Of a stretch of 64,000 nucleotides of DNA, positions 27,311-44,275 are shown piece by piece (the stretch's first letter is position 1; each line of letters starts with the position of its first letter). A model generated the notes under the pieces. That model searched no databases, was not told where the DNA came from, and saw only the letters and a list, made by a program, of their open reading frames with translations. The position numbers and the translations under genes were made by a program. Origin of the DNA: an uncultured Candidatus Saccharibacteria bacterium (GTDB taxonomy: Bacteria; Patescibacteriota; Minisyncoccia; UBA6257); the NCBI GenBank assembly GCA_964479005.1, contig CAYZJA010000002.1:32001-96000 (forward strand), read 5' to 3'.

Positions 27311-28418
27311 AAAAGCTATCATCAGATTTCCCATGAATCAAGCCGGGATTAATTTCTTTATTTAATTTAATAATAATTTCATCTTCTTTAATTGAATGCA
27401 ATCCATCTAATAAGAAATGATAATTAAAACTAATCTTTAATGGATTTCCACTTATATCTTCGGGGGTAAGAACTGTATGGCTTTTCCCCAAAGAAGGGTC
27501 TTGAGCCTCAATAACAATTTCCTTTTTCGATGAATTAAAATCAAACATAACGTCATTTATCCTCCCGCTAAATAAGCCAATAATTTTAACGGCCTCAATT
27601 AATTTCTTTCTATTTAAAATTGTCTGATTTTCAAAATTAGACGGAATTATTGAAGAATATTTTGGGTATTCAGCATTAATAAGCCTGGATATTAAGCGAA
27701 CATTATTTAATGAAAACTGAATTTGATTAGGTTCTGGAAAAATCTTTACTACACTACTAACTTCCTCCATCTCTTCTTGAATAATTCTTAGAACTTCTTG
27801 CGCTGTTCTTAATGGAATTATTATTTCTAAATTATCTTTTATATTAGTTTTAATTTTTTGGGATAAAATATTCTTTTCTGCCAAACGGAAACTATCAGTG
27901 CCAACTAATTTTAAAACGCTTTTTGAAGTATCGTTTTCTAATTTGAATAAAATACCATTCAATTCTGGTTTTGGAGAAGTATAACCAACACTCGGAATTA
28001 CTTGTTCTAATGCTTCTTCAAGGTCCTTTTTTTCTATTTCTATATATCTTTCTGTTTTTGTTTCTGGAATAATTGGAAATTCATCGGGATTTATTCCTTG
28101 AAAGGTCGTATTATAATTCCCACTTTTTACTGATAGAATATTTTTACTTTCTTCAATTGTAATTTTTTCTTCTGATAAATTATTCAAAAACATAGAAAAA
28201 GTTTTTGCTGGAATGATAAATTTTCCTTCTTTTTCCACTTTTCCTGTGATGATTAATTCAATTCCAATTTCCAAATCAGTGGCCAAAAGATGGAGCTTAT
28301 TTTTATTTGTTTTTAAAAGGATATTACTCAAAATAGGGAGTGTAAGATTTTTCCCTGTAATTTTTTCTGCTAAATTAATAGATTTTTTAAAATTATCGAC
28401 TAAAGTGATAAATTTCAT
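27282..28418 (-). CDS. dnaN: DNA polymerase III beta sliding clamp
   Basis: 378 aa with the three-domain beta clamp. It lies downstream of dnaA. Confidence 0.9.
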   Translation of the reverse strand: MKFITLVDNFKKSINLAEKITGKNLTLPILSNILLKTNKNKLHLLATDLEIGIELIITGKVEKEGKFIIPAKTFSMFLNNLSEEKITIEESKNILSVKSGNYNTTFQGINPDEFPIIPETKTERYIEIEKKDLEEALEQVIPSVGYTSPKPELNGILFKLENDTSKSVLKLVGTDSFRLAEKNILSQKIKTNIKDNLEIIIPLRTAQEVLRIIQEEMEEVSSVVKIFPEPNQIQFSLNNVRLISRLINAEYPKYSSIIPSNFENQTILNRKKLIEAVKIIGLFSGRINDVMFDFNSSKKEIVIEAQDPSLGKSHTVLTPEDISGNPLKISFNYHFLLDGLHSIKEDEIIIKLNKEINPGLIHGKSDDSFSYILMPIKI

Positions 28419-28672: not shown

Positions 28673-30055
28673 TCATTTATTATACAACATTTCTTTCAAA
28701 ATTGTTATTTCCTGACAAAAAACAGGGTTTTTTTCAATTTCAGAAGATATCTTTTTATATGCATGAATAACGGTGGTATGGTCACGATTACCTAATTTTT
28801 CAGCAATACTGGTATAGGAATAATGCAACTCTTCGCGCAAAAGATACATTACTATTTGCCTTGGTTTTACTAATTCTTTCTTCCTAGAACGACCCAAAAC
28901 ATCGTCTTCTTTAAGGTCATAGAAAGAAACTATTTTTTTAATCACTTCTTTTGGTGAAATATATTTATTTGATTTATTTAAAATGAGTGACAATATTCTT
29001 TTGGTTTCTTCTAAAGAGATTGGACTATTTTTAAGGCGCGCATGCGCGATGACTCTGTTTAATGCTCCCTCTAATTCCCTGATATTCTTTGGGATTGCCT
29101 CAGCTATATACTTAAGAACATCATTGTTTATAAGATGGGATACATCCTGACTTTTGTTTTCTAAAATAGCTAATCTTGTTTCAAAATCAGGATAACCAAT
29201 ATCAGCTATCATACCCCCTTCAAATCTAGACCTTAACCGTTCCTCAATAGACGGAATAGATTTTGGCGGGCGATCAGAGGTAAAAACAATTTGTTTATCT
29301 TTTTCATAGAGCGTATTAAACGTATGGAAAAGTTCTTCTTGTGTTTTATCTTTTCCGGCGACAAACTGGACATCGTCAATTAAAAGAAGATCAAGATTTC
29401 GGAAACTTTTTTTAAACTCTGTCATTTTTTGATTACGGATAGCATTAACTAAATCATCTGTAAATTTTTCCGAGGTAGCGTATAAAATTTTCAATTTCTT
29501 TTTTTTTCTCTTTAGTTCATTACCAATAGCTTGTAGAAGATGTGTTTTTCCTAATCCAACGCCGCCATAGATAAAAAGAGGATTATATTTTTTTCCTAGA
29601 TTTTCTATTACTGCCAAAGATGCTGCATTAGCTAATTCATTATTGGTTCCGACAACAAAGTTTTCAAAAAGGTATTTTGGATTAAGATTAGTTTCAGGGT
29701 CAATATTAAATTCTAATTGTTCATCTAAAACTGACGATTTTGAAATAGTTGAAGAACGTTTTGTTTTTTTAGTCTCTATTTTTTTTAAAGAATCTTTATT
29801 AGTAGTAACCAGATATTCAATCTTTTTAATTTTAGGATTTAAGCTAAAAAGAGCGTGTAGAATTTGTTTATGGTATTTATTTTCAAGCCATTCTTTTGTA
29901 AAACTAGATGGGACACCTATAAAGACCGTTCCTTCTTTAATATCTAAAATAAAAGCATCTTTTAACCATGTTAGGTAATTAGCTTTAGAAATATTCAATT
30001 TAATCTCTCCCAAAGCTGCTTCCCAAAGTTCTTTGATATCCATAATTGAAATCAC
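28673..30055 (-). CDS. dnaA: Chromosomal replication initiator DnaA
   Basis: 460 aa with the AAA+ motif (GGVGLGKTHLLQAIGNE), sensor motifs and a C-terminal HTH DNA-binding domain. Confidence 0.95.
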   Translation of the reverse strand: MISIMDIKELWEAALGEIKLNISKANYLTWLKDAFILDIKEGTVFIGVPSSFTKEWLENKYHKQILHALFSLNPKIKKIEYLVTTNKDSLKKIETKKTKRSSTISKSSVLDEQLEFNIDPETNLNPKYLFENFVVGTNNELANAASLAVIENLGKKYNPLFIYGGVGLGKTHLLQAIGNELKRKKKKLKILYATSEKFTDDLVNAIRNQKMTEFKKSFRNLDLLLIDDVQFVAGKDKTQEELFHTFNTLYEKDKQIVFTSDRPPKSIPSIEERLRSRFEGGMIADIGYPDFETRLAILENKSQDVSHLINNDVLKYIAEAIPKNIRELEGALNRVIAHARLKNSPISLEETKRILSLILNKSNKYISPKEVIKKIVSFYDLKEDDVLGRSRKKELVKPRQIVMYLLREELHYSYTSIAEKLGNRDHTTVIHAYKKISSEIEKNPVFCQEITILKEMLYNK

Positions 30056-30399: not shown

Positions 30400-30735
30400 A
30401 TGCTTAAAAAGAAAAACAGAATTACATCTTCTGTTGCTTTTAAAGAGATTTTTACTAAAGGTAATGTAAAAGAAAACGAGTGTTTTAAAATTATCTTCAA
30501 AAAGAGTGATTTAGACTATCCGAGGTATGGAATTATTGTTAAGGCTCAAAATAGTAAGTCAGCTGTACAAAGGAATGCTTTAAAAAGAAGAATTAGAGAT
30601 ATACTTAGAAATTCTTTGTTGGTTTTTCCAAAAGGATTTGATGTTGTGATTGTTACGAAGAGAAATTGTTTAAATATGAATTTCTCAAAGCTGAAAGAAT
30701 CTCTTGGTGAATTATTATTAAAACTATTTAAATAA
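30400..30735 (+). CDS. rnpA: Ribonuclease P protein component
   Basis: 111 aa basic protein in the canonical rpmH-rnpA-yidC-jag arrangement. Confidence 0.8.
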   Translation: MLKKKNRITSSVAFKEIFTKGNVKENECFKIIFKKSDLDYPRYGIIVKAQNSKSAVQRNALKRRIRDILRNSLLVFPKGFDVVIVTKRNCLNMNFSKLKESLGELLLKLFK

Positions 30736-30741
30736 ATTATT

Positions 30742-31434
30742 ATGAATGTTTTTGAATTATTGATTTTTCAACCGCTATATAATCTTTTAGCCTTACTCTC
30801 CAATCTAACAATGGGTGATTTAGGGTGGGCTGTTTTAATTTTGGCGGCAATAATTCGTTTTATTATTTGGCCTTGGTATAAAAAAGCCATGGGGGATCAA
30901 AGAAAAATGGCAAAATTACAGCCGAAAATTAAAGAAATTCAAAAGAAGTTTAAGAAGGAACCAATAAAGGCCAATCAGGAAGTAATGAAAATTTTTAAGG
31001 AAGAAAAAATCAATCCTGGCAATTCTTTCTTTTTTATCATTTTCCAATTGGCTATTTTTATTTCCCTTTATATATTTTTTAGGCAAGCCATAGTCAATGA
31101 TTGGGCTCCTTATCTTTATAGCTTTGTTAAATTGCCAGAACAAATAAATTATTTATTCCTTGGCATTATTGATCTTAAAGCTCCAAGCCTTGCTCTCGCG
31201 ATTATTTCAGCTTGCTTGAACTCCTTTTTGACTTTTATCCAACCAAGTTCAGGCCAGAACAAAGCAATGTTACTTGGCTTCCCTTTTATAATTTTATTTT
31301 TCTACCAGAGATTTCCCGCGATTGTTATTTTGTATTGGATAGGATTTACTTTAGTAAATCTTTTGCAGGAATATATGACTAAGAAAGAAACCATTCTCCC
31401 AAATCAAGCATCGGAAGTAAAGGCTATCAGTTAA
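30742..31434 (+). CDS. yidC: Membrane protein insertase YidC (short form)
   Basis: 230 aa polytopic membrane protein. The assignment rests on synteny with rnpA/jag plus YidC/Oxa1-like TM topology. Confidence 0.75.
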   Translation: MNVFELLIFQPLYNLLALLSNLTMGDLGWAVLILAAIIRFIIWPWYKKAMGDQRKMAKLQPKIKEIQKKFKKEPIKANQEVMKIFKEEKINPGNSFFFIIFQLAIFISLYIFFRQAIVNDWAPYLYSFVKLPEQINYLFLGIIDLKAPSLALAIISACLNSFLTFIQPSSGQNKAMLLGFPFIILFFYQRFPAIVILYWIGFTLVNLLQEYMTKKETILPNQASEVKAIS

Positions 31435-31508
31435 TTTTGAGCAAAGCCACGTTTAACGTGGCAAAGTGAGAAACAAGGTTCTGTGAACAAAGTAAACAGG
31501 TTCTTATT

Positions 31509-31982
31509 ATGGAAACATTAAAGGTAAAATCTTTTTTAGAAGAATTGCTTACAATTGTTGGTTTTGTAAATTTTGAGATTAGTACACAAGAAAGTCCCCA
31601 GGACAAACTTGTTCAGTTTTCAATTAAAACTGATTCAGAAATTAATTATAGTGGTCTTTTGATAGGACGTGATGGAGAAAACCTGCAAGCATTAGAATAT
31701 TTATTAAATATCTTTTCAAAAAAATACTCCAATGATTATCCTTGGAGAATTATTTTAGATATTAATAATTATCGGGCAATACAGGAAGAAAAATTAAGAG
31801 AATTTGCTAAAAAAGCGGCTCGTCACGTATCTTTATCAAAAAAAGAAATAGAATTACCGCCCATGAGGGCGCGAGATAGAAGAATTATCCATTTAGAGAT
31901 TGCTTTAAGAAGTGATGTATTCACAGAAAGTGTTGGGGAAAGGAAAGAGAGGCATATTATAATAAAACCGCAAGAAAAATAG
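31509..31982 (+). CDS. jag: Jag/KhpB-like RNA-binding protein (KH + R3H domains)
   Basis: 157 aa with a KH-like GRDGENLQALEYLLN segment and an R3H motif (RARDRRIIHLEIA). Confidence 0.8.
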   Translation: METLKVKSFLEELLTIVGFVNFEISTQESPQDKLVQFSIKTDSEINYSGLLIGRDGENLQALEYLLNIFSKKYSNDYPWRIILDINNYRAIQEEKLREFAKKAARHVSLSKKEIELPPMRARDRRIIHLEIALRSDVFTESVGERKERHIIIKPQEK

Positions 31983-32000: not shown

Positions 32001-32714
32001 TTAAGTAGCACCATACCAGCATCCTTCAGTAATACAATAATCACTGCCTGGATATGAACCATATCCAGTTGCTTCCATTAAAGATACATGGAGATGATTT
32101 CCCTCATCTAATACTGCCAATCCAGCTTTATTAAATTCTGCTATTATTTTTTTATTATCTTCAGAACTATTTGAAACTGAATCTATATCTACACAAGTGC
32201 CATCAAGATGACAATCATCGGCTCTCCTTGGCGTATAACTTGTACTATTGCATTCAGCGTCAATACAGGCATCATTTACCCACCACTTCGGATTTATATC
32301 TTTTAATAGAAGTAATTTATTTGCTAACGTGGAATCTAAATAAGCTTCTGATTGACCAAATGTATTATCATTTATTGGAATCCCCATATCTCTTATATTA
32401 ACTAAATTTTTTGATATAGCCTGATCTTCTGTAGTAACTTCTAGGGTAACTTCTGATGAGGGCAGGGTTATTGTATCAGAAGAACCTTTTAGAATATCAG
32501 GATTGATAGTATAAAGAATAATATAAAAAGCAAACAATAAAAGAAGTCCAATAATGGCGCCTGTGATTCTTTCTTGGGCGTCTTTTTGTTGGGCAGTATT
32601 ACCTCCAGAAGTAAGGTATTGAAAACCAGCATAAACAATCATGGCAAAAGCTAAAATTCCAGCGAGGCGAAAAGCCCACCAAATAAAAGTCTCGATTAAG
32701 CTTATTGGAGTCAT
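32001..32714 (-). CDS. T4SS pilin-like (VirB2-analog, two TM helices) protein fused to a C-terminal Cys-rich domain with HxD / HxH metallopeptidase-like motifs
   Basis: 237 aa. The N-terminus (AGILAFAMIVYAGFQYLTSGGNTAQQKDAQERITGAIIGLLLLFAFYII) fits the Gram-positive/CPR T4SS pilin pattern. The C-terminal ~140 aa contain CHLDGTC and NHLHVS. A LAS-type fold is a guess. Confidence 0.5.
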   Translation of the reverse strand: MTPISLIETFIWWAFRLAGILAFAMIVYAGFQYLTSGGNTAQQKDAQERITGAIIGLLLLFAFYIILYTINPDILKGSSDTITLPSSEVTLEVTTEDQAISKNLVNIRDMGIPINDNTFGQSEAYLDSTLANKLLLLKDINPKWWVNDACIDAECNSTSYTPRRADDCHLDGTCVDIDSVSNSSEDNKKIIAEFNKAGLAVLDEGNHLHVSLMEATGYGSYPGSDYCITEGCWYGAT

Positions 32715-32723
32715 AAGTTTTTA

Positions 32724-33419
32724 TTAAAATTGAGTAACATCGCCAGGATTAACTAGTCCAGGAATTCCTATTTCCCATTGGTAAGATTCAAAAATAGGAT
32801 ATTCAATTGACTGTATGTTTGGTGGAGCTGGTGGTTCTGGCAATGTTTGCAGAAATGTCTGCAGAATTTCATTTAAAATTATTGGGCATATTTGGGTAAT
32901 AAGAATAGCCATTGAGGTGCCAACTGTTGTGCCAAAAACCATTATATTTGCAGTTGCATCTGAAAGTGATTTACAGATATGCTCAATATCTACATGTTTA
33001 AGTAATAAATCTAAAATCCAACTTTTGACAAGTCCTGAAATATCATTATTTCCGTTTATTGCGCTTATAACCAATAATTTTAAGTCTTCTGGAATTACTT
33101 CATTATTCTGTATGATATTTATGAGTTCGTCTTTAACAGTATCTGTAATGTTCCCGTCATTTTGTATTGAGTTTATGAGATATGGTTTTAAATCTTCTGG
33201 AATCTCTTGACTGTTCTGTATTATGTTTATAAGTTCATTTTGAGTAAGTTCTGCTAATTCTGCGCCATCATTAAGGTTTGTTATTGTATCTAAGACCCCT
33301 TGTGGATCCAAAAAAGCCTGAGTTTGTATTGGGACTAAAAATAAACCACCTAATCCCAAATTTAATATCAAAACAATTAATACTATAGCCTTTGTTTTTT
33401 TGAAGATATTTTTAAGCAT
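32724..33419 (-). CDS. Secreted protein with three internal ~25-aa repeats (ELINIIQN..IPEDLK)
   Basis: 231 aa with a signal peptide. Repeats are visible in the translation and the C-terminus is hydrophobic. Confidence 0.4.
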   Translation of the reverse strand: MLKNIFKKTKAIVLIVLILNLGLGGLFLVPIQTQAFLDPQGVLDTITNLNDGAELAELTQNELINIIQNSQEIPEDLKPYLINSIQNDGNITDTVKDELINIIQNNEVIPEDLKLLVISAINGNNDISGLVKSWILDLLLKHVDIEHICKSLSDATANIMVFGTTVGTSMAILITQICPIILNEILQTFLQTLPEPPAPPNIQSIEYPIFESYQWEIGIPGLVNPGDVTQF

Positions 33420-33441
33420 ATTATTTTTTATTTAAAAATGA

Positions 33442-33810
33442 TTAGACTTTTTTTGGCGATGTTGCAGACGTAAGTTTAGTTACAGACGCAAGCTTAGCTG
33501 TTTTTTTTATTGCTTTTTTAACAGGTGCTGGTGATTTTTGGAGTGCATAGACAAGTATAACAGTTAAAGTGGCAATGGGCAAAATACTGGCAAATGGTAT
33601 AAGATCTAATGCTTGACCAATAAAAATCCATGTACCTCTTATTCCGCTGATAAGTGTAATAACAAAGATATAAATGACGAGAGGCAGGACAATAACCCAA
33701 ACAAAGAGGTTAATTCCAGGAATAAATCCCAAAAAGATTTCTATAACATCTTTAATAATGGATGTTATAAGCAAGAATAAAAATATTGTTAAGCTCATTT
33801 TATTTTTCAT
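33442..33810 (-). CDS. Small polytopic membrane protein (T4SS-cluster associated)
   Basis: 122 aa with 3-4 TM helices and a K-rich C-terminus. Confidence 0.4.
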   Translation of the reverse strand: MKNKMSLTIFLFLLITSIIKDVIEIFLGFIPGINLFVWVIVLPLVIYIFVITLISGIRGTWIFIGQALDLIPFASILPIATLTVILVYALQKSPAPVKKAIKKTAKLASVTKLTSATSPKKV

Positions 33811-33820
33811 AGAATAATAT

Positions 33821-35611
33821 TTATTCTTTTTTGAACTCCTCTTTAGCTTTCCTAATATCTATAAGTTGAGCTGGGTTTGAGGTAATAATTTGGTCTTCAG
33901 CATAAGAAGCGATAATCTGAATGGCAGCATGTTTGTCTTCTGCAAAAAAGAGACCTGTGCCAACAGAAGCTTGCAAAAGGATGGTTTTTTCTTGTTCTGT
34001 AAGATTTAAGGCTTTGCCTATGATATCAATATTCGCAGGCGACTGTCTTAGTAAAAGGGCTAAAGCAGAGTTGGTAATTAATGGTTTTCCATAAGGTGAT
34101 TTTAAAGCGTCTTCTATGTCCTGTGTAATAAAGGTTACTCCCATATAATACTTTCGCGCTCTTTTAACTAAACCAAAAAGAAAAGACGCGCTTTCTTCGT
34201 GGCGTAACAACCACCATCCTTCATCAATTATTACAACCCTTTTTCTTAAATCCTTTTTTATCATTGTCCATATGTAATTTAATACTACATACATGGCAAT
34301 AGGCCTAAGTTCTTCTTCTAATTCTCTTACGCCAAAGATAACTAAACGATTGTTAATATTAATATTCGATGGTTGATTAAGGAAGCCAGCATAGCTTCCT
34401 TTGGTGAATTTATAAAGTTTTGCAGCTAAATCTTCGCCTCCCTCGGTATTTTTAAGAACATTCTCTAGATCTTCCATTAATGGCAGATTTTTTTTCTCAA
34501 CCATATTTTCAGGAAAAATATCCCGACTTGCGTATGTTTGTACAATGGCTCTATCTAGCATAAGTTCTTCCTGAGGAGAAAGACCTTTAAGCATTAACTT
34601 AATTAGGCCAATAAGATTTAAAATATGGTTGCGAAAAACTTCTTCGCCAGTTTCCTCTTTTTTTACTGTAGGAAGTTCAAATGGATTAATATTATCATCA
34701 GAAGCAACAGATATTTTAAAGTAGCTTCCGCCAATTGAATCAGCCAAGTATTCATACTCATTTTCCGGATCAATAATCAATACATTAGTTCCTAGTAATA
34801 ATGAACGAAGGATTTCTAATTTTATAGCATAACTTTTTCCTGCGCCAGCTTGGGCAAAAACTATCATATTTGCGTTTGGTAGAACAAAGCGGTCAAAAAT
34901 AATCAAGCTATTATTATGCAGATTAACGCCATAAAGGATTCCTTTGTTTTCTGAAAGGTCTAAAGAAGAAAAAGGGAAAAGGGTTGAAGCCGGCTGTGAA
35001 TTTAAGGGAGTAGTTAATAATAATCTATCTATTCCCAATGGTAAGGAAGATTCCATTCCTTCGAATTCTCTAAAGACAGTTGGTTTTGCGTAAATTAACT
35101 GCTGCTCTAATACATTTTTGATTTTACTTTCTATTTTTATAAGTTCCTCCTTGTCATTGGCAAAAAAAGTGATATAAACACCTACTTCAAAAAGTTTTTC
35201 ACTACCTTGTTGGATAGTATCTCTTAGTTTTTCAATATTATTTAAAGCAGCTTCTAATAAGGGGTTACGAACTAATCCTCTATCTGCTTCAATGCTTAAT
35301 TGAGCTTGAATTTCTGCAGATTTTTTTCTTAAATTTCTTAAAACCTTATTAATATTAAGAGGGTGGAAAAAGATTGAAATATTAAAAGATTCATCCAAAT
35401 TAATAATTGAGGAAAACCAATTAGAGGCTAAATAATTTGGATAAGTTAGGATAAAAAGAGTTGAACAATATTTATTTCCTAATTTGAGAAAGTTAGTATT
35501 AATTTCTAATCCAGCAGGGGAAATTAAGTCCTGAAGAGTAGAAACAGCCTGGGATTGCGCTACCACTTGCGGGTTTTTAGGTTTTCTTTTAAATAAGTTT
35601 GGAAAACGCAT
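33821..35611 (-). CDS. VirB4/TrbE/CagE-family conjugal-transfer-type ATPase (C-terminal ATPase portion)
   Basis: 596 aa with Walker A (AQAGAGKS) and Walker B (VVIIDEGWW). It is followed in the cluster by PrgI-like and VirB6-like proteins. Confidence 0.75.
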   Translation of the reverse strand: MRFPNLFKRKPKNPQVVAQSQAVSTLQDLISPAGLEINTNFLKLGNKYCSTLFILTYPNYLASNWFSSIINLDESFNISIFFHPLNINKVLRNLRKKSAEIQAQLSIEADRGLVRNPLLEAALNNIEKLRDTIQQGSEKLFEVGVYITFFANDKEELIKIESKIKNVLEQQLIYAKPTVFREFEGMESSLPLGIDRLLLTTPLNSQPASTLFPFSSLDLSENKGILYGVNLHNNSLIIFDRFVLPNANMIVFAQAGAGKSYAIKLEILRSLLLGTNVLIIDPENEYEYLADSIGGSYFKISVASDDNINPFELPTVKKEETGEEVFRNHILNLIGLIKLMLKGLSPQEELMLDRAIVQTYASRDIFPENMVEKKNLPLMEDLENVLKNTEGGEDLAAKLYKFTKGSYAGFLNQPSNININNRLVIFGVRELEEELRPIAMYVVLNYIWTMIKKDLRKRVVIIDEGWWLLRHEESASFLFGLVKRARKYYMGVTFITQDIEDALKSPYGKPLITNSALALLLRQSPANIDIIGKALNLTEQEKTILLQASVGTGLFFAEDKHAAIQIIASYAEDQIITSNPAQLIDIRKAKEEFKKE

Positions 35612-35614
35612 ATT

Positions 35615-36295
35615 TTATTTATTAAATTCTTCTGGAATATTTATGGATTCTCTTTCAAAAGCTTCTGGGTTGTATGAATTGAAAAATAATTCAATCAGTT
35701 CTTTAGTAGTTAATGGTCGTGATTGTAATCCCATTCTAGTTAAATTCGTAATGATATTATTTTGTCTGATTATTAATTGTTGATAATGCTGACGAAAGCT
35801 TTCATCAGAAAGAGGGATTGTGGCGGAAAATGCCTGGTGCCTTAAATTAAGCAATGTTTTATAAGCTTCTAATATTTGGCTTAACGCGGTCTTTGGTTTA
35901 ATCATAATGGGGTCATAGGGCACTATTACATAGAATTTCTTTTTCATAATATTGTTTCCAGTAACAAGTCCTTTAATGAATGTATAATAATCCTCTCCTT
36001 GCAGTTTAAGCAGATTATTTGTTTCTTGACCAATCTTTTCCTGAAGAAAATTTAAATATGATTCAATATTAACGCGCCTAGAATGAGCTACAACTTGCAA
36101 TGGAAAATCTAAGTTATTTATAAGATTACGCCAGCTCATTAACACGGAAGATTGTTCTTCTTCTGATTTTAAATCAAAATTTATACCTGATACTTCTAAA
36201 ACCGAACGGAGCGAACCGTTTTTAAGAATAACTACCCCTTTTCTAATTTGTTGAAGGGAAATGAGTGACTGGCTACTGAAAGTTTCTTTAGGCAT
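35615..36295 (-). CDS. Hypothetical protein, likely the detached N-terminal domain of VirB4
   Basis: 226 aa ending 3 nt before the ATPase ORF start and in the same frame (TAA-AAT-ATG). The combined length of 822 aa is about that of a full VirB4. Confidence 0.45.
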   Translation of the reverse strand: MPKETFSSQSLISLQQIRKGVVILKNGSLRSVLEVSGINFDLKSEEEQSSVLMSWRNLINNLDFPLQVVAHSRRVNIESYLNFLQEKIGQETNNLLKLQGEDYYTFIKGLVTGNNIMKKKFYVIVPYDPIMIKPKTALSQILEAYKTLLNLRHQAFSATIPLSDESFRQHYQQLIIRQNNIITNLTRMGLQSRPLTTKELIELFFNSYNPEAFERESINIPEEFNK

Positions 36296-36712
36296 CTATT
36301 TATCTAATATATCGGTTAATTGTTTAAGTGTTTTTTTGTCCAATTGTTTTTTAATCTGTGTTTTTACTGTGGGTTTAGGCTTTTGAGAAACAGAATAAGA
36401 TACTTTCGAAAAAGTTTTTTCTTTTTTCCATAGATAGTATTTTGGAAGCCAAAAATGTCTGATTGCGGCAATGGCGAGTGTATAAATAGGAACACTATGG
36501 ATTTTCCCAAATGCGAGAGAAAAACCGACTGGAGCGAGAATCATTGCTAAAATTAACCAAAGCCATGGTTTTAAAACAGAAAAAAGTAAAAGGAGGAGTC
36601 CTCCAAAAGATAATAAAATCCATAATTGGGTAAAGGTAATCCAACCCATTAATTTTGTTTCCTCTTTTATAAATTGAGGCACTTGATAAGTCATATTTTT
36701 AAGCTTTACCAA
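36296..36712 (-). CDS. PrgI-family / VirB3-like small membrane protein
   Basis: 138 aa with two TM helices, positioned immediately upstream of the VirB4 homolog as in Gram-positive T4SS loci. Confidence 0.55.
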   Translation of the reverse strand: MVKLKNMTYQVPQFIKEETKLMGWITFTQLWILLSFGGLLLLLFSVLKPWLWLILAMILAPVGFSLAFGKIHSVPIYTLAIAAIRHFWLPKYYLWKKEKTFSKVSYSVSQKPKPTVKTQIKKQLDKKTLKQLTDILDK

Positions 36713-37589
36713 AAGGACTTTTTTTCTGATATTTTTTATAAGGAATAGGCTTTTGGATAGTAGGCGTTTCTTCTTTTTTTTCTTTTTCCTTTTTTAATTT
36801 AACGTCAAGGATATATGGTTTTTCTTTTTTAGTTTTCACAAAAACTTCTTCATCCTCAAATTCTTTTCCTTCACCGCTTAAAATTTTAGAGGGCGTTAAT
36901 TCTCCTATTCTTTTCTTTTCTAATATTTCCTTTTCTTCTCTTTTTGCTTCTTTGGGCGATGGGGGTTTTAAAGAGACTTTTTTCATTTCTTCAACAATCT
37001 TCGGTTGGACGGGTTTTCTCTGCATTGCCGCCAATAGCTTTGCTCTGATTTTTTCTTGTTGTTCTGAAGAAATTTTTGGAGCAACAACTTTTTTTAATTC
37101 CTCTATTTTACTAACTGGTTTTTCCACTTTTACTTCAGATGGTTCAGGCAAAGAATATTCAGGAATAATTGGTTCAGAAGGCATTTGTTCTGTAATGGTT
37201 TGTTCAATTTTTTCTTTCGTAATAGGCTTTATCTTTGAGGGCTTTTGCGGAATTCTTTGCTCTAAAGGTTGAGGTTTGTATTGGTTCAATTCTTTCTCAA
37301 ATATTTTAAAGATTTTTCCTTCAATTACTTTGTTAACAATTTGAGCTGCTACTGGAGAAATATTAATTCTTCTTTCTAATTCATTTTTGAATTGATCTTT
37401 AGATAATTGAAAAGATAAAATTTCTGTTATGATGTCCATAACACTAGAAAATTTTTCAGATGAAACTTTGCCCAAATTTAAAGCATCATCTATAATTGCC
37501 CCCATCTTGTCAGAGGCCAAAAAGTCCTGAATACGAAATGGAAGTTTATTGAATGATTTTAAGAATTTGTTTTTGTTCGTTTCTTCCAT
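36699..37589 (-). CDS. K/E/P-rich low-complexity hypothetical protein (T4SS-cluster associated)
   Basis: 296 aa with a structured N-terminal 100 aa followed by a KEP-rich tail. Confidence 0.4.
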   Translation of the reverse strand: MEETNKNKFLKSFNKLPFRIQDFLASDKMGAIIDDALNLGKVSSEKFSSVMDIITEILSFQLSKDQFKNELERRINISPVAAQIVNKVIEGKIFKIFEKELNQYKPQPLEQRIPQKPSKIKPITKEKIEQTITEQMPSEPIIPEYSLPEPSEVKVEKPVSKIEELKKVVAPKISSEQQEKIRAKLLAAMQRKPVQPKIVEEMKKVSLKPPSPKEAKREEKEILEKKRIGELTPSKILSGEGKEFEDEEVFVKTKKEKPYILDVKLKKEKEKKEETPTIQKPIPYKKYQKKSPFGKA

Positions 37590-37603
37590 ATTCCTCAGTA
37601 AGA

Positions 37604-39820
37604 TTAAAAAGGCAAAAATTCTGCCAAGAAACGATTTTTGTCGTATTTTCTTCTTTTGAGCTCTTGTTTAACAGTTTCTTCATTTCCGTGGATTTTGTCT
37701 TGGACAGATTTTACAAGTTTTTGTGCCCATTTTGTTTGTTTTTCAGTATCATTTGTTGACCTAAGCATAGCAGCAAAATTTCCAGCTGGAAGATTTTTAT
37801 CTAAAAGAGTATAGAAAAATCGATTGGTATGCTGTGGTCCTTTTTCTTCTAATCTTTCAAGAATGTTTTCCCAATTACCTAATTTTATATCATCAGGCGA
37901 AGATTTTAGCAGTTGTTCTGCTATAAGATTAGTGATAACACGATTTTTAGCTTCATCACGAGAGACTCCATGGAATCTTCGCTTCATCTGTTCTATTGCT
38001 TTGTCCATATCTTCAGGTTTTGTAAAGTATTTAGCATGAAGTTCTGGATGAATTTTTTTAATTCCTGAAACATTTAAATTAGGTTGATTTTTAGCTATTT
38101 CGATGAACTTGCTATCTTTTTTATAATCCAGTGATTCTTTTCCTATTAATGTGTTAACACCCAAAGCCATTCTTCCCCCATCTGTCTTATGTGCTTCCAT
38201 ATCAACTCTAATTTGATCTGGGCTTCTTCCTTTATAATCTTCTTCAATTTGTTTTAGTTCAGCTTCGCGAACTTTCCTAGGCTGCCTACCCATCCAAACC
38301 CCTATGTCATGTGTAGGCGCAAATTTGCTGTCTTCTAATTTTTTCTGAGCTTTTCTCCATGGTTCTGAGCTTACGGCTCCTTTTAATGCTTTATGACCAA
38401 GGAAGGCGCCAGCTACTGCTCCAGCCTTAGTAGTTTGTTTCATAACTAATTGAGATGCTGCTCCTCCGCTTTGGAGGGAGAAAATTAATCCTCCTACCAA
38501 AAACATAGAGAATAAAATCATTTGCACTATTGTTGAAGTTACAGAGTCTGCGCCGATTGATATTTGACTCATTCCACTCATTGCTATTATAGCAATATAC
38601 AGTATAAAACTAAAAATAACAGGAAAAAAACACCATTTTATAAATTGTTGCCACCACATTTTCCAATATTTTTCTGTATCTGGGAAAATCCAACAAGCAA
38701 AAACGATAGGGGATAAACCTAGAAGCATAATTAAAATGAATGCTCTGAAAATTATTGTCAAGAAAATAGCAAGCAAAGCAATAACAGCAAAACCTCCAAC
38801 CAATATCATTATAAAGCTGATTATGAAAAAGTTACCAAAACGTAGGCTATAACTCTCTACTTCCGTTGCTGCTGTTGTAGTTGCTGTACCAGTATCTCCA
38901 AGACCTAGAATTTTTGGCGTTTCATATTTATCCTCGCCAAATAAAACAGGAGGATCAAATGTTTTTGTATCCGCTGATTGTTGTTCTTGTTCAATATAAC
39001 TAAAACTTTCCATTATACGAGGGGCAAGGCTTTCATTTTTTTCTTGAGCAATGTTTAGAAAATATACTGAGAGATAATTAGAAGTATCTACTATGATTCC
39101 TGATATAACTAAACTGAAGTTTACTAACAAAGCAACAAGTATTAATTTCCAAAGGATTTGTTTCCAAGCATATTTTTTATAACCAAGAATAGTTGCGATA
39201 GCAATACCTATTAACCCTAAAACTAAAAGTGCGTTAACTAAATTGCGCATCATTTCCCATATTTGTATAACACCATCATTTGTAGCAAATCCGCCATAAG
39301 TTTTCGGATTTAACGCTTTTAATATCCAGCCTATTTCTAAATCTATTAATCCAGCAAACATTTTACCCAAACCTTCAAGTATGGCTTTTGTAGTAACACA
39401 CCACATGTCTGCAATCACTACTTTTATTTCGCATCCAAGCGCATCTAACCCCCAACCATACCTCGCTGCGCATTCCTGCATTCCCTCTTCAAAGTTCTTC
39501 TTACAAAGACCTTCTGGCCTTTCTTCTTGAAGTCTGGTTTTTATTGTCTGTGCTCCATGTCTTATCTCTGTTGTCCCAGGTTCAGGATTTGGAATACAAC
39601 ATTGCTCACTACCAAATCCAGGACAACTCAAAGAAGATTCAATGTAATCTTCTAAATCACTACATTTTGTTGTCTTTTTAACAACACATGTACCTCCTGC
39701 TTCTTCGCAGTCAGACCCAGCTCTTACTTGTGAAATATCAGTTTTTAAAACAGGGCTGATTAGTAATGTAAGAATAACTATGCTAAAAACCCCAATTTTT
39801 AATATATTTTTTGTTTTCAT
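37604..39820 (-). CDS. VirB6/TrbL-like polytopic membrane protein with N-terminal Cys-rich extracellular domain and C-terminal soluble domain
   Basis: 738 aa. A signal peptide is followed by a Cys-rich region with about 8 Cys, at least 6 TM helices in the middle and a soluble C-terminal 250 aa. Confidence 0.5.
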   Translation of the reverse strand: MKTKNILKIGVFSIVILTLLISPVLKTDISQVRAGSDCEEAGGTCVVKKTTKCSDLEDYIESSLSCPGFGSEQCCIPNPEPGTTEIRHGAQTIKTRLQEERPEGLCKKNFEEGMQECAARYGWGLDALGCEIKVVIADMWCVTTKAILEGLGKMFAGLIDLEIGWILKALNPKTYGGFATNDGVIQIWEMMRNLVNALLVLGLIGIAIATILGYKKYAWKQILWKLILVALLVNFSLVISGIIVDTSNYLSVYFLNIAQEKNESLAPRIMESFSYIEQEQQSADTKTFDPPVLFGEDKYETPKILGLGDTGTATTTAATEVESYSLRFGNFFIISFIMILVGGFAVIALLAIFLTIIFRAFILIMLLGLSPIVFACWIFPDTEKYWKMWWQQFIKWCFFPVIFSFILYIAIIAMSGMSQISIGADSVTSTIVQMILFSMFLVGGLIFSLQSGGAASQLVMKQTTKAGAVAGAFLGHKALKGAVSSEPWRKAQKKLEDSKFAPTHDIGVWMGRQPRKVREAELKQIEEDYKGRSPDQIRVDMEAHKTDGGRMALGVNTLIGKESLDYKKDSKFIEIAKNQPNLNVSGIKKIHPELHAKYFTKPEDMDKAIEQMKRRFHGVSRDEAKNRVITNLIAEQLLKSSPDDIKLGNWENILERLEEKGPQHTNRFFYTLLDKNLPAGNFAAMLRSTNDTEKQTKWAQKLVKSVQDKIHGNEETVKQELKRRKYDKNRFLAEFLPF

Positions 39821-39853: not shown

Positions 39854-40669
39854 TTATACAATATTTTTGATTAACAAGGAAGAAAGAGAAATCCATTCTT
39901 TTATGGAAAGATTTTGCGCCCTTGTATTTAGCGGCATGTTTAATTGTATGAATATTTTTTGGAGAACGTCTCTTTTTATACTGAGATTTTTGGAGAGATT
40001 ATTTATAAGCAATTTTCTTGGTTGCTTAAAACCAGCTTTTATAACTTTGAAAAAAGATTGCGGAGTTTGCCCGCCTAAATTTTGTTTCAAAATTTTAGCG
40101 GGTAAAGGAGTTATTTTAATAACAGCAGAGTCTACTTTAGGTTCTGGATAAAAAGCGGTTCTTGGAACATAGCAAATGATTTCTGGTTTTGCATAAAATT
40201 GTACAGAAGCGGATAGAAGATTCATTTTTGGTGGTTGAGCTATTATTCTTTCAGCCACCTCTTTTTGAATCATTAAAACTATTAATTTAGGTTTAATTGG
40301 ATTTTCTAAAAGTAAACGCAAAAGTCGCGAAGTTAAATAATAAGGAATATTGCCGATGGCCTTGTATTCAGTATTCAGTATTCTGTATTCAGTGTTTTGG
40401 AGGAAGTCTCGAATATCTCCTTGGATAATTTTTAAATTTAATTTGTCTTTAAAGTAATCTTTCAGGAATTTTACTAATTCTGGGTCTTTTTCAACAGCGA
40501 TTATTTCAGCACCAGTTTTCAAAAAAGCTTGAGTTAAAATGCCCTTTCCTGGTCCAATTTCTAAAATTTGATCTTTGGAGTTGATATCTGCTGCTTGGAT
40601 AATCTTTTGTATAGTCTCCTCGTCCTTAAGGAAAACTTGCCCTAATTTTTTTTGTTTTCTTGTTATCAT
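39854..40669 (-). CDS. rsmA: 16S rRNA (adenine1518/1519-N6)-dimethyltransferase
   Basis: 271 aa with LGQVFL...ILEIGPGKGILT and SAM-MTase motifs. It contains a small in-frame tandem duplication (NTEYRILNTEYKA). Confidence 0.9.
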   Translation of the reverse strand: MITRKQKKLGQVFLKDEETIQKIIQAADINSKDQILEIGPGKGILTQAFLKTGAEIIAVEKDPELVKFLKDYFKDKLNLKIIQGDIRDFLQNTEYRILNTEYKAIGNIPYYLTSRLLRLLLENPIKPKLIVLMIQKEVAERIIAQPPKMNLLSASVQFYAKPEIICYVPRTAFYPEPKVDSAVIKITPLPAKILKQNLGGQTPQSFFKVIKAGFKQPRKLLINNLSKNLSIKRDVLQKIFIQLNMPLNTRAQNLSIKEWISLSSLLIKNIV

Positions 40670-40736: not shown

Positions 40737-41420
40737 ATGAATAAAAAAACATATACAAATTTGGTCATCATTGGTCTGGCCATAATAGCAATTGTCGCAG
40801 TCTTGCTTGTAAGAAGTAGGGGAAATCAAAATATTTATACTGGATTCTTAAAACCTGGAGAAGGCGCTTGGTCTGAAATTATGAATAGTGCAGAAAACTC
40901 ACAAAGGATAGTTTATTTAGGAGAAAAGATTGTTCATAATACACGAGCATATGGAATAGAAATTGAGTCAATTGTTTCTGAAAATGAAAGTGCTGTTACG
41001 CAGGTATGGCGGGACAGAGAATCAAATGAAATAGTGGAGATTGTTAGTAAACTAAAAGGGAAAAGCGAAGTTATTTGCGTAAACGATTCTTTAATGGAAA
41101 TACTTATACCTTCATTTAGTTCTTTGCTTCCAGCAATAAAAACACCAGAAAAATATAGTTTAAATAATGAATATACTTATGGTACTTTTACTACTAATAC
41201 CGGAAAAACAATTCAAATAGCGAAGCTCATGGACGAAAACGATATTGAGATATGGATTAGCAGTGAAGTTCCGTTTGGTATTGTAAAAATTGTAAATAAC
41301 ACAACAGGAGAAATCACAGCTTATTTACAGGATTTTGGTTTGACTGGAGGCAAGGCAAAGATTTCAGAAACAGAAATGCTTAATTGCAAAAAGATAAATT
41401 TTCCTAATTTAACAGAATAG
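40737..41420 (+). CDS. Secreted/membrane-anchored hypothetical protein
   Basis: 227 aa with an N-terminal TM/signal. Confidence 0.4.
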   Translation: MNKKTYTNLVIIGLAIIAIVAVLLVRSRGNQNIYTGFLKPGEGAWSEIMNSAENSQRIVYLGEKIVHNTRAYGIEIESIVSENESAVTQVWRDRESNEIVEIVSKLKGKSEVICVNDSLMEILIPSFSSLLPAIKTPEKYSLNNEYTYGTFTTNTGKTIQIAKLMDENDIEIWISSEVPFGIVKIVNNTTGEITAYLQDFGLTGGKAKISETEMLNCKKINFPNLTE

Positions 41421-41442
41421 ACTAAAAGATATATTTTGTTTA

Positions 41443-41471
41443 CCCCGTTAGAAGTATTGTTTCTGACGGGG
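41443..41471 (+). terminator. Hairpin (ccccgttagaa / tttctgacgggg) downstream of 40737..41420
   Basis: About 11-bp stem with one mismatch. It is not followed by a strong T-run, so terminator function is uncertain. Confidence 0.35.
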
Positions 41472-41499
41472 TTGACATTCAAACTAATCTTGATAGAAT
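41472..41499 (+). promoter_or_regulatory. Sigma70-like promoter (TTGACA-16-TAGAAT)
   Basis: TTGACA at 41472-41477 and TAGAAT at 41494-41499, upstream of the LysM-M23 gene. Confidence 0.4.
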
Positions 41500-41606
41500 T
41501 ATTGATAAGGCCTTTAAGAAGGCTTTTTTAATAACATTTATTCTAAATTACCATTTTTACCTGGAAAGCACAACTTAATAAAGGTATAAAAAGCGCCAAT
41601 TATTTA

Positions 41607-42686
41607 ATGTCCTTATCTTTATTAAAGATAGCAATTGGTTTGTTTTTGATTTCTTTGTTTTTCGGCAATTCTTATCTTTCTTCCCAAATTATGTTTCTTC
41701 AAAAAGAGGGGGAAGAGTTTTTAATAAAAGAAGACGGTTGCCCCATAATTTTAGAAGGCAGTTCATTTGCTAAGACGGCTTATGCCTACAGTGAATGCTT
41801 AAGTGCGGACGGAAGTCAAATTATTGAGGGCGATTTTGAAACGTATGACCCAGCCCAACAGAATTTTTTGATTATTATAAACAGCGATAGTTTTTTGGGA
41901 ATTAATTCCCCTGTTAAATTTTTATTGCCTTCATCTCAGCGCCATACAGTTTTTTCCTATGTAGTGCAGGAAGGAGATACGCCGGGTAGAATTGCGGCAA
42001 ATTTTGGAGTAAGTTTAAATACTATTTTATGGGCTAATGATTTAAAATCCAGCTCTATAATTAAACCCAATCAGGAACTCATTATTCTTCCAATTTCAGG
42101 AGTAATGCATACAGTCAAAAAAGGAGACACATTACTTTCTATAGCCAAAAAATACAGGGCATCATCTGATGAAATATTTGTTTTTAATGATTTAAAAGAT
42201 GAAGGTTCTATAAAAATCGGCCAAGAACTTATCATTCCAAGTGGTCGGCTTTCTTCAGCCACTTCTCTATCATTATCTGCTGGGCTTAAACCTATGATAA
42301 TTGATATTAGTCATTGGCCAGAGATTGATGGCTTTTTTGCTTATCCTACTTCCTTCGGCTTGAATAGAGGGATTTTCCACTATTATAATGCCGTTGATAT
42401 TGTGAGTTCTTGTGGAAGTCCTATTTATGCTGCTGCTGATGGAATGGTAGTTGAAGCTAAAGGAACAGGAAGATATAATTACGGTTATGGTAATTTAGTT
42501 AAGATTCAACATTATAACGGCACTACGACTGTTTATGGCCATCTAAGCGGATTATCTGTAAAAGAAGGAGATAAGGTTTATCAAGGAGATCTAATAGGAA
42601 AGATGGGTGACACAGGCAATGCTGAATGTTGTCATCTTCATTTTGAAGTCAGAGGAGCCCAGAATCCTTTTGTAAAAAGACGATAG
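41607..42686 (+). CDS. Secreted LysM-LysM-M23 family metallopeptidase
   Basis: 359 aa with two LysM repeats and a C-terminal M23 domain (HYNGTTTVYGHLSG...GDTGNAECCHLHFEV). Confidence 0.85.
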   Translation: MSLSLLKIAIGLFLISLFFGNSYLSSQIMFLQKEGEEFLIKEDGCPIILEGSSFAKTAYAYSECLSADGSQIIEGDFETYDPAQQNFLIIINSDSFLGINSPVKFLLPSSQRHTVFSYVVQEGDTPGRIAANFGVSLNTILWANDLKSSSIIKPNQELIILPISGVMHTVKKGDTLLSIAKKYRASSDEIFVFNDLKDEGSIKIGQELIIPSGRLSSATSLSLSAGLKPMIIDISHWPEIDGFFAYPTSFGLNRGIFHYYNAVDIVSSCGSPIYAAADGMVVEAKGTGRYNYGYGNLVKIQHYNGTTTVYGHLSGLSVKEGDKVYQGDLIGKMGDTGNAECCHLHFEVRGAQNPFVKRR

Positions 42687-42692
42687 GGACAA

Positions 42693-44237
42693 TTAATATT
42701 CATTCCAAGAAAATTCCGTTTTATATTGCAATGCTTCGGCAACGTGATTAAACTTAATTGTTTCTGTATTTTCTAAATCAGCTATTGTCCGGCTGATTTT
42801 TAAAATTCTGTGATAGGATCGAGCTGATAAAGAATATTTGTTGATAGCCTTTTTTAGTAAGATTTCCGCTTGTTGCTCTACTTGGCAAAATTCATTTATT
42901 TCTTTTATTTTCATTTCCCCGTTAGTAGACATACTAGGATTAATATTAATGAATCTTTGTTCTTGTATTTTACGGGCAGTAATAATCTTTTGTTTTATTT
43001 CTTCCGAGGTTTCTAGGGGGATATTGCTCTTTATTTCTTTAAATGATAAACGCGGTACATCAATAATAATATCGATTCTATCCAAAAGTGGGCCAGAAAT
43101 CTTTTTTCTATATCTAATTATATCTCCAGGGCGGCAGACGCATTCTTTATGCGAATCACCAAAATAGCCACATGGGCAGGGATTCATTGCCGCTATTAAA
43201 ATAAATTTAGCTGGAAAAGTGATTCTGTTTTGGACGCGGGATACGCAAATTTTCCCCTCTTCTAGTGGCTGCCTAAGGCTTTCCAAAACATCTCTTTTGA
43301 ATTCTGGCAATTCATCCAGAAAAAGGATTCCGCAATGAGCTAAAGTAATTTCCCCGGGCATCGGATGCGTTCCCCCTCCAATTAGCGCAGCTGACGACGC
43401 AGTATGATGCGGAGAACGAAAAGGACATTGCGTAATTAATGGTTGAGAAGGCGGGAGCAATCCGCTAATACTGTGAATTTTAGTCACTTCAAGGCATTTT
43501 TCCATGCTCATTGGTGGGAGAATAGAGAGAAAGGCTTTGGCTAGCAGAGTTTTTCCCGAACCAGGCGGACCTATCATTAAAATATTATGATTTCCGCTGG
43601 CAGCGACAACAAGCGCCCTTTTTGCTCTGGCTTGCCCCTTTATTTGAGAAAAATCCATCTCTTTATTAAAAGCACTGGGAAAATTCTTAGGGGCTTTATA
43701 AGGAGAAAGATTAATTTTGTTTTCTAAAAAAGAAATAAGTTCTTTAAGGTTTTTTATTCCAATAACTTTTAGATTTTTTGCAGCCATAGCCGCTTCGGCA
43801 GCATTTTTAGAAGGAACGAAAATATATTCATAACCGTTTTTTTCTGCCCACATAGCAATAGCTAAAACTCCGCGTACTGGTTTTACCAATCCTTCTAATG
43901 TTAATTCTCCAACGAAAATCTTTTTTTCAGGAGAAAAAGGAATAATTTGTTCAGAAGCCAAAAGATAGCCTAATGCAATAGCTACATCATAATAAGAGCC
44001 GTATTTTTTCATATTAGCTGGCGCTAAATTAATAGTAATTTTCCTATTTGCTCTTAAAGGAGATTTAGCTCCAATATTTTTTATTGCGGCTGATACTCTT
44101 TGCTTGGCTTCTTTAATAGAAATATCTGGTAAGCCGATTATATTAAAAGAATGAAGTCCATTAGATACATCAACTTCTACTTCAATTAAAGTAGTTTCTA
44201 AACCAAAAAGAGCGGCAGAGTAAATTTTAGACAACAT
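42693..44237 (-). CDS. comM: Mg-chelatase-like AAA+ protein ComM/YifB
   Basis: 514 aa with the N-terminal Lon-like domain (MLSKIYSAALFGLE..) and an AAA+ core (GPPGSGKT). Confidence 0.9.
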   Translation of the reverse strand: MLSKIYSAALFGLETTLIEVEVDVSNGLHSFNIIGLPDISIKEAKQRVSAAIKNIGAKSPLRANRKITINLAPANMKKYGSYYDVAIALGYLLASEQIIPFSPEKKIFVGELTLEGLVKPVRGVLAIAMWAEKNGYEYIFVPSKNAAEAAMAAKNLKVIGIKNLKELISFLENKINLSPYKAPKNFPSAFNKEMDFSQIKGQARAKRALVVAASGNHNILMIGPPGSGKTLLAKAFLSILPPMSMEKCLEVTKIHSISGLLPPSQPLITQCPFRSPHHTASSAALIGGGTHPMPGEITLAHCGILFLDELPEFKRDVLESLRQPLEEGKICVSRVQNRITFPAKFILIAAMNPCPCGYFGDSHKECVCRPGDIIRYRKKISGPLLDRIDIIIDVPRLSFKEIKSNIPLETSEEIKQKIITARKIQEQRFININPSMSTNGEMKIKEINEFCQVEQQAEILLKKAINKYSLSARSYHRILKISRTIADLENTETIKFNHVAEALQYKTEFSWNEY

Positions 44238-44275
44238 AATTTATGCACCCGCCGCTTTTTTGAATATTTTATAGT

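Follow-up and report, generated by a model that had tools for sequence, protein, structure and literature searches.

Introduction

The eight-gene cluster described here lies in a 64-kb window (the whole stretch of DNA analyzed, 64,000 nt) of contig CAYZJA010000002.1 from an uncultured Candidatus Saccharibacteria bacterium (assembly GCA_964479005.1), and its closest described relatives are the type IV secretion systems (T4SS) of the Patescibacteria. The extracts of Quinonero-Coronel et al. (2025, PMC12102498) on which this account draws describe a clade of VirB4 that is specific to Patescibacteria and related to MPF-FATA, with TrsD, PrgI/VirB3, VirB6 and VirB2-like (PF18895) proteins encoded near virB4 and, in Paceibacteria, with dnaA, dnaN, rnpA, rpmH and ksgA in the neighborhood. 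Relaxases were almost absent (109 in 103 Patescibacteria genomes), and the 5,713 VirD4-type homologues in 2,918 genomes were mostly far from virB4. An ancient horizontal origin from monoderms was inferred in the same extracts, and an import function was proposed. In Southlakia epibionticum, the distant t4cp gene was not essential and the T4SS genes were (PMC12102498). According to extracts of Wang et al. (2023, PMC10633639), the T4SS and pilins of that organism (SEML1_0006-0019) are essential for epibiotic growth, the coupling and relaxase proteins are missing, and protein export or an alternative role was favored. Patescibacteria T4SSs were summarized in a 2025 review (PMC12857230), and in a 2026 preprint a cultivated member was reported to take up host RNA and to show tubular structures, possibly T4SS pili. 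In the single member studied by genetics the system is required for epibiotic growth, and nearly all of the phylum, which perhaps holds a quarter of bacterial diversity, has it.

The cluster of the window shares with these systems its VirB4, TrsD, PrgI/VirB3, VirB6 and PF18895 pilin genes, the lack of a relaxase or type IV coupling protein (T4CP) gene nearby, and a location beside dnaA, dnaN, rnpA, rpmH and ksgA as reported for Paceibacteria. It is very probably a chromosomal, origin-proximal T4SS typical of Patescibacteria (class Paceibacteria/Parcubacteria), related to MPF-FATA and likely serving as a host-interaction conduit. The gene set, the absence of relaxases and the origin-proximal position are already known, and nothing is new at the level of the system; since they were published (PMC12102498, PMC10633639), the locus is one more example of what has been described. 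The additions are modest: a fusion of the pilin to a Hedgehog/DD-peptidase-like (LAS) domain, a conserved small transmembrane (TM) protein without a name, and variable C-terminal domains of the pilins. A fusion of a pilin to a Hedgehog/DD-peptidase-like domain is not mentioned in the extracts of the two papers. The locus also differs from the published systems in the loss of the pilin signal peptide and in three further conserved or clade-specific unnamed genes. Unlike Saccharimonadia and Microgenomatia, in which 2-11 pilin genes are commonly arrayed, it has a single pilin gene.

Compared with the MPF-FATA systems (pCF10 prgF-prgL/pcfC; pGO1/pSK41 trsC-trsE), the cluster has the same CD1110-type VirB4, with a match to PrgJ, and a VirB6-VirB3-VirB4-(hydrolase) order collinear with prgH-prgI-prgJ-prgK of pCF10. 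Its separate TrsD upstream of the ATPase is as in pGO1, and its architecture is that of monoderms, with no VirB7, VirB9 or VirB10. Unlike those systems, the cluster is without relaxase, T4CP (PcfC/TrsK), PrgK-type hydrolase (PrgK/TrsG), VirB8-like PrgL and adhesin (PrgB), and it has a VirB2-like pilin, which the Gram-positive systems lack. They are conjugative, whereas the cluster is chromosomal, vertically inherited and not mobile.

Results and Discussion

VirB4 and TrsD

All eight co-directional minus-strand genes given in a preliminary description of the window were found as open reading frames (ORFs), tightly packed from 39820 down to 32001 with intergenic gaps of -14 to +22 nt (Table 1). 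Sequence homology showed five components of a T4SS among their products: VirB4, a TrsD-like protein, PrgI/VirB3, VirB6/TrbL and a VirB2-like pilin. When all eight proteins were compared with PrgF-PrgL and PcfC (phmmer), only VirB4 matched, to PrgJ.

The VirB4 protein exceeded the cut-off of the NCBIfam conju_CD1110 equivalog NF045971 (356.2 bits, E = 3.6e-106; cut-off 325), and matched P-loop_TraG (E = 1.7e-24) and CagE_TrbE_VirB (E = 2e-6) in Pfam. Its residues 29-557 aligned to residues 227-771 of pCF10 PrgJ (E = 4.5e-43), and its Walker A (GAGKS, residue 256) and Walker B (DEGW, residue 463) motifs were invariant among the aligned homologues. Assignment to the FtsK/HerA ATPases was rejected, as the match to HerA/DUF87 was a short one over the P-loop (31.6 bits, residues 251-328) against the 356 bits obtained with VirB4 CD1110; the genuine FtsK of the window is encoded by a separate gene (214-2331) and has alpha and gamma domains. 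The taxa named for the 120 best VirB4 matches were metagenome-assembled genomes belonging to the candidate phyla radiation (CPR)/Parcubacteria wherever the source named one.

The TrsD-like protein matched NCBIfam TrsD/TraD NF041427 (E = 1.2e-9, 38 bits; curated cut-off 200) and aligned as well to the N-terminal parts of the CD1110 (positions 3-119) and TIGR00929 (positions 19-174) models for VirB4, and its orthologues in the annotated loci of relatives bear PF26593 TraC-like. Because it matches the N-termini of VirB4, and the 596-aa protein aligns to PrgJ only from residue 227 to 771, the two ORFs together reconstitute a full-length VirB4. The VirB4 "in two pieces" of the preliminary description therefore holds in that the two ORFs cover the N- and C-terminal parts; it does not hold as a broken gene, the two being a conserved TrsD and VirB4. 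They are in the same frame, parted by TAA AAT ATG, with TAA and a single further codon (35612-35617) ahead of the ATG. The split was kept in 119 of 120 listed homologues (53-95% identity), with one fused 788-aa protein as the exception, and a TrsD gene was beside virB4 in 83 of 85 loci (L001-L005 and L006-L085, the latter being the 80 best loci of a scan of one genome per species). A pseudogene or a recoded gene was rejected on this recurrence, and since the split is conserved the in-frame junction looks like tight translational coupling and not a nonsense mutation.

Membrane partners

The PrgI/VirB3-like protein has two TM segments, with an alternative ATG start possible at 36694, and matched Pfam PF12666 PrgI (E = 3.5e-5, 24.7 bits; gathering score 27). 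Genes at the same position in L004 and L005 carry PF12666, and tblastn located PrgI matches in 68 of the 85 loci, in each case immediately upstream of TrsD.

The VirB6-like protein carries a signal peptide, five or more TM segments and 12 Cys. Its residues ~44-96 form a small Cys-rich beta ectodomain, ~125-470 a bundle of TM helices and ~475-735 a C-terminal domain that is cytoplasmic and all-helical. It matched Pfam TrbL PF04610 (E = 1.6e-5, 25.2 bits; gathering score 25.9) and the NCBIfam MMCAP2_0566 conjugal transfer family NF045848 (E = 1e-9), and many of its homologues bear PF19590 TrbL_3 or PF04610. The five best Foldseek matches of its AlphaFold2 (AF2) model (predicted local distance difference test, pLDDT, 77) were all R388 TrwI/VirB6 chains (probability 0.95-1.0, TMt ~0.5, E = 0.2-0.3). 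Each of these lines of evidence is weak alone, and together they converge on a VirB6/TrbL-like protein. The similarity to PrgI/VirB3 and to TrbL/VirB6, and the Cys-rich ectodomain, had all been proposed before and were borne out.

The small TM protein, recognized earlier as multi-TM, has a Lys-rich tail and matched no Pfam or NCBIfam family. In 34 of the 47 related Paceibacteria loci covered by an iterative hidden Markov model (HMM) search (within L001-L083), a member of its family is encoded as the first ORF after VirB4, and it is therefore considered an unnamed core component, conserved and widely present in these clusters as judged from sequence. Neither this protein nor the repeat protein encoded next to it showed similarity to PrgD-PrgM or to the following 202-aa ORF (hhalign).

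The pilin and its C-terminal domain

The last protein of the cluster matched PF18895 T4SS_pilin with 32.1 bits (gathering score 26.6), so that a VirB2-like pilin is encoded near virB4 as in the published systems; 17 of its 61 homologues also matched TrbC/VirB2. The extra C-terminal domain attributed to it in the preliminary description was confirmed: a hairpin (residues 1-75, nt 32490-32714) is followed by a disordered linker (78-101) and by a predicted LAS domain (102-237, nt 32004-32411). The AF2 model, built with 61 sequences, had a pLDDT of 87 overall and of >90 in the C-terminal domain of ~135 aa, and showed a two-helix hairpin at residues 3-75.

The nine best Foldseek matches of the C-terminal domain were all Hedgehog N-domains. 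Against PDB sequences, 23 of the 27 matches of the family profile were Hedgehog chains, including every match below E = 1 (best E = 0.0027). The profile alignment put HxxGxxVD and E..HxH in register with the zinc site of Sonic hedgehog (Shh), in which H141, D148, E177 and H183 match the pattern H-x6-D ... E-x2-H-x-H. The same pattern is found in the Hedgehog-N/DD-peptidase superfamily (LAS), which includes the VanX/VanY-type M15 peptidases. The protein of the window has H169, D176, E204, H207 and H209; H169, G172, D176 and E204 were invariant in the 61 sequences, and HxH (207/209) was present in the window protein and in 27 of the 61. Three Cys are nearly invariant in the domain, which thus fits an extracytoplasmic site. 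Identity to Shh was 14-19%. No Pfam match (PF01085 HH_signal or M15 families) was obtained with the C-terminal domain of the window protein, and HH_signal was matched by 3 of the 61 homologues (best E = 0.0023), no Pfam threshold being reached.

The model gives the C-terminal domain the fold of the Hedgehog-N/DD-peptidase (LAS) superfamily, and its zinc-site residues are intact; given the LAS zinc hydrolase signature, a role as peptidoglycan peptidase is the best inference. Unlike other members of the superfamily, the domain is Cys-rich and fused to a T4SS pilin hairpin. The family of such proteins is tiny (13 matches among 1.84 billion cluster representatives), and every match that also hit a recognized T4SS-related Pfam family was fused to a pilin. 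No paper linking pilins and Hedgehog domains in Patescibacteria was found in the literature searched. These features suggest a cell-wall peptidase that is either tethered in the membrane or exposed on a pilus. The fusion is specific to this clade and offers a concrete candidate for the way in which the T4SS handles peptidoglycan.

Whether the 237-aa protein polymerizes bears on this choice. It may be a non-polymerizing protein, in which the hairpin is a membrane anchor holding an extracellular zinc peptidase beside the translocon as a functional analogue of VirB1/PrgK, and this is a serious possibility, though somewhat less likely than not. A domain of 135 aa on each subunit would crowd a filament of the VirB2 type, and the position of the gene is comparable to that of prgK in pCF10. 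The protein also lacks the signal peptide that the pilins of its relatives have (lost in the lineage of the window). It is encoded by the sole PF18895 gene found in the cluster, within which there is no separate VirB1; a plain pilin may, on the other side, exist among the ORFs of the window shorter than 110 aa, outside the range of the Pfam scan. In solved pili of the VirB2/TraA type the termini face outward, which makes a domain tethered by a linker sterically conceivable on a filament. Polymerization is also favored by the essential pilins of S. epibionticum (PMC10633639, extracts) and by the tubes seen by cryo-electron microscopy in another member (2026 preprint).

The hairpins themselves are found in very different proteins, which agrees with an anchor. 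Proteins with PF18895 hairpins in related clusters had 99-1231 aa and highly variable C-terminal extensions, most of them without a Pfam match; one, in L005 (Portnoybacteria, 13037-13903), carries a YkuD L,D-transpeptidase extension, and other extended hairpins include L058:2346-6041 and L031:7863-9479. On these data it is tentatively proposed, with more doubt than confidence, that the VirB2-like hairpin of Paceibacteria is a modular carrier of variable enzymatic or binding domains on the filament or base of the T4SS, and that the protein of the window is a pilin that cuts the host wall. The cargo would then be a zinc peptidase here, YkuD in the Portnoybacteria relative and unassigned domains elsewhere (the proteins reach 1231 aa). 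If so, a T4SS pilus would be coupled to attack on the cell wall in a way not described before, and a bacterial Hedgehog-like domain would gain a defined cellular context. When 146 ORFs downstream of VirB4 in 47 loci were scanned with Pfam, PF18895 was found in 29, PD40 propellers in 4, SLT in 1 and YkuD in 1. Cell-wall enzymes as a general feature of this region were rejected, as they were occasional only (the one SLT and the one YkuD). In many distant Paceibacteria clusters (L004-L083) the last gene before jag encodes ~365-440 aa, and the window has no gene of such size there; the PD40 beta-propeller ORFs were not tied to that gene.

Proposed mechanism and function

In the mechanism considered most consistent with these components, VirB4/TrsD would dock on PrgI and VirB6 to form a translocon in the cytoplasmic membrane. 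The VirB2-like hairpin would be extracted from the membrane into a surface tube or stalk, or would stay as an anchor. The Hedgehog/DD-peptidase-like zinc domain would cut peptidoglycan peptides, and this cutting would let the apparatus cross its own wall or attack that of the host. The machine would serve interaction with the host, either exporting proteins or importing macromolecules of the host, a role also proposed for the essential T4SS of S. epibionticum. By analogy with pCF10, the Hedgehog/DD-peptidase-like domain and the neighboring LysM-M23 protein may substitute functionally for a PrgK-type hydrolase. The LysM-M23 gene was at the same position in L001, L003 and L008, and its product is possibly an accessory of the VirB1 type, by comparison with published cases: VirB1-profile matches with M23/LysM domains are on record, and VirB1 homologues accompany virB4 in Paceibacteria (PMC12102498, extracts).

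Several results weigh against this interpretation of the cluster. The PrgI and TrbL scores of the window sequences were just under the Pfam gathering thresholds, and the Foldseek E-values of the VirB6-like protein were no better than 0.2-0.3. The HxH motif was absent from 34 of the 61 homologues of the pilin, and peptidase activity is predicted on fold and motifs only. Inside the cluster neither a VirB8-like nor a VirB1-like protein was recognized, and three of its eight genes (those of the K/E/P-rich, small TM and repeat proteins) are without an assigned role. The absence of T4CP and relaxase covers 64 kb, so that a distant copy elsewhere in the genome is possible, and T4CP homologues are reported from many Patescibacteria genomes, mostly far from virB4 (PMC12102498, extracts).

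Like ComB (Helicobacter) and Ced (Sulfolobales), in both of which a T4SS was co-opted for a non-conjugative function, the cluster combines a VirB4-family ATPase and membrane partners with no relaxase. Given the ComM neighbor and the preprint on host-RNA uptake, a role in nucleic-acid import is plausible. That the cluster is a dedicated import machine of this kind, taking up host DNA or RNA, is nevertheless rather unlikely. The match to CedB (E = 1.7e-11) was weak and partial, comprising ~70 residues of the shared ATPase core; it is the one sequence link to ComB/Ced, from which the cluster differs in envelope and partners. A gene for a ComM-like helicase is a conserved neighbor, but the adjacency occurred in 12 of the 85 loci, a minority. 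Patescibacteria are without nucleotide synthesis, and both the preprint on host-RNA uptake and the proposal in PMC12102498 (extracts) agree with import, whereas Wang et al. favor protein export or an alternative role (PMC10633639, extracts).

Conjugation was considered less probable still. The Pfam scan, which took in the window's ORFs of 110 aa or more beyond the cluster except the obvious dnaA, dnaN, rnpA, yidC, jag and ksgA, found no VirD4/T4CP, relaxase or VirB11 and no type IV pilus genes in the 64-kb window, in agreement with the preliminary description as to the first three. Since no T4CP or relaxase accompanies the cluster, and since it is vertically inherited beside dnaA, it is most likely not a conjugation device. 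A working conjugative T4SS with its coupling protein and relaxase encoded elsewhere in the genome is very unlikely: only 64 kb of the genome were covered, and VirD4-type homologues in the phylum are indeed numerous and mostly distant from virB4, but relaxases are rare in it and the distant t4cp of S. epibionticum is dispensable where its T4SS genes are essential (PMC12102498, extracts), and vertical inheritance beside dnaA is atypical of a mobile element. The minimal non-conjugative T4SS of CPR type that had been suggested matches what is published (PMC12102498 and PMC10633639, in extracts; PMC12857230); DNA uptake and host attachment, the functions put forward along with it, are hypotheses.

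Conservation and position of the locus

At least 589 species genomes encoded a relative in a scan of one genome per species. The order ksgA - VirB6-like - X - PrgI - TrsD - VirB4 - small TM - ... - pilin - jag - yidC - rnpA - (rpmH) - dnaA - dnaN was found in L001-L005, and the same order occurred on contigs with VirB4 at 89%, 78%, 58% and 53% identity. Order and flanks recurred across L006-L085, in dozens of Paceibacteria species and to 49% VirB4 identity. Titles that named a lineage among these 80 loci were mostly of Paceibacterota/Parcubacteria (Harrison-, Jorgensen-, Wolfe-, Niyogi-, Azam-, Nealson-, Zambryski-, Yanofsky- and Moraniibacteria); most of the 80 were titled Patescibacteria or candidate phylum, others "bacterium", and four "uncultured Bdellovibrionales bacterium".

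The setting is origin-proximal, with dnaA, dnaN, rnpA and ksgA as in Paceibacteria: dnaN (27282-28418) and dnaA (28673-30055) are followed by rnpA, yidC and jag within 30400-31982, and the cumulative GC-skew minimum was near 28-30 kb, beside dnaN. The G+C content of the window was ~32%, and that of the cluster (0.31-0.34) was equal to that of its flanks. No repeats bounding the cluster were found, and no integrase was found in the window. The gap between ksgA and the VirB6-like gene is 33 nt and that between jag and the stop codon of the pilin gene 18 nt. No strong match to a minus-strand promoter was found between ksgA and the cluster, and the two may be co-transcribed.

The earlier view that the cluster had been inserted between the jag operon and ksgA was not upheld. 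Because synteny is conserved, G+C is like that of the flanks and bounding repeats are lacking, the cluster is not an insertion, and comparison of sequences places it as an ancestral, vertically inherited locus near the origin; a recent insertion or integrative and conjugative element (ICE) was rejected on the same three grounds. That it is the remnant of an ICE or plasmid which entered at the jag-ksgA junction, its relaxase, coupling protein and integrase having since been lost, is extremely improbable. In favor of a remnant, its components are homologous to Gram-positive conjugation genes, and an ancient horizontal origin from monoderms has been inferred (PMC12102498, extracts). Against it, position and order are conserved across Paceibacteria, composition and the lack of integrase and repeats are as given above, the two gaps are too short for att sites, every gene is intact and conserved, and any acquisition was ancient, at the base of the group and not local.

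K/E/P-rich and repeat proteins

The K/E/P-rich protein has the composition for which it had been singled out (K 19%, E 14%, P 8%), is without a TM segment and matched no family in Pfam or NCBIfam. Its slot between VirB6 and PrgI holds a gene of 285-427 aa in L001-L005. The sequence diverges fast (tblastn matches in 8 of the 85 loci).

The secreted repeat protein of the first description was also borne out; it has a signal peptide and an internal repeat of 36 aa. The two repeats (ELINIIQN..IPEDLK; DNA copies at 33057-33133 and 33165-33241) are accompanied by a hydrophobic segment and, at the C-terminus, by a conserved WE[IV]G[IL]PG motif, and the protein is confined to close relatives (6 family members). 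It is in the same frame as the pilin, with a TAA TAA AAA CTT junction before the pilin ATG (32714-32726), and in L008:12127-13566 the two form a single ORF of 479 aa. They are separate genes in L001, L003 and L006, where the pilin has its own signal peptide. A single gene split by read-through was rejected: the stop is double (TAA TAA) and the repeat protein of relatives ends at the same place, and the two were therefore treated as two genes.

Gene layout and surroundings

Table 1. Coordinates of the genes of the T4SS cluster and of its flanking genes in the window
Feature	Coordinates	Strand	Length	Remarks
VirB6/TrbL-like polytopic membrane protein, extended	37604..39820	-	738 aa	
K/E/P-rich soluble protein	36699..37589	-	296 aa	
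PrgI/VirB3-like two-TM protein	36296..36712	-	138 aa	From TTG start
TrsD-like protein, N-terminal domain of full-length VirB4	35615..36295	-	226 aa	
VirB4 ATPase	33821..35611	-	596 aa	
Small polytopic membrane protein	33442..33810	-	122 aa	3-4 TM segments
Secreted or membrane-associated repeat protein	32724..33419	-	231 aa	
VirB2-like pilin with Hedgehog-N/DD-peptidase-like (LAS) domain	32001..32714	-	237 aa	
ksgA/rsmA (16S rRNA dimethyltransferase)	39854..40669	-		Upstream co-directional flank; PF00398 RrnaAD in orthologues
jag (KH/R3H protein)	31509..31982	+		Convergent downstream flank; last gene of rnpA-yidC-jag operon after dnaA
TM protein, function not assigned	40737-41420			Upstream block
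LysM + Peptidase_M23 cell-wall hydrolase	41607..42686	+		Pfam M23 E = 1.2e-28, LysM E = 4e-25
ComM/Mg-chelatase-like ATPase (helicase)	42693-44237			Upstream block
DksA/TraR zinc-finger protein	44276-44659			Upstream block

The block upstream of ksgA (40737-44659) was conserved in the close relatives L001, L003 and L008. In some loci of Moraniibacteria (L073, L075, L077) comM was also matched, at ~0.8-0.9 kb on the downstream side of virB4.

Some 28 kb from the cluster, an SLT_2 lytic transglycosylase domain occurs in a protein of 513 aa (3089-4630), another possible partner in wall remodeling. A protein of 1170 aa with lamin-tail (LTD) domains (11652-15164) is presumably a large surface protein. 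A 388-aa protein (54535-55701) has the homing-endonuclease-associated HNH_repeat domain. The region 56322-61175 is a neighborhood of surface proteins, with a DUF11/PKD protein (56322-58448), a CAP-domain protein (59457-60443) and a sortase (60489-61175).

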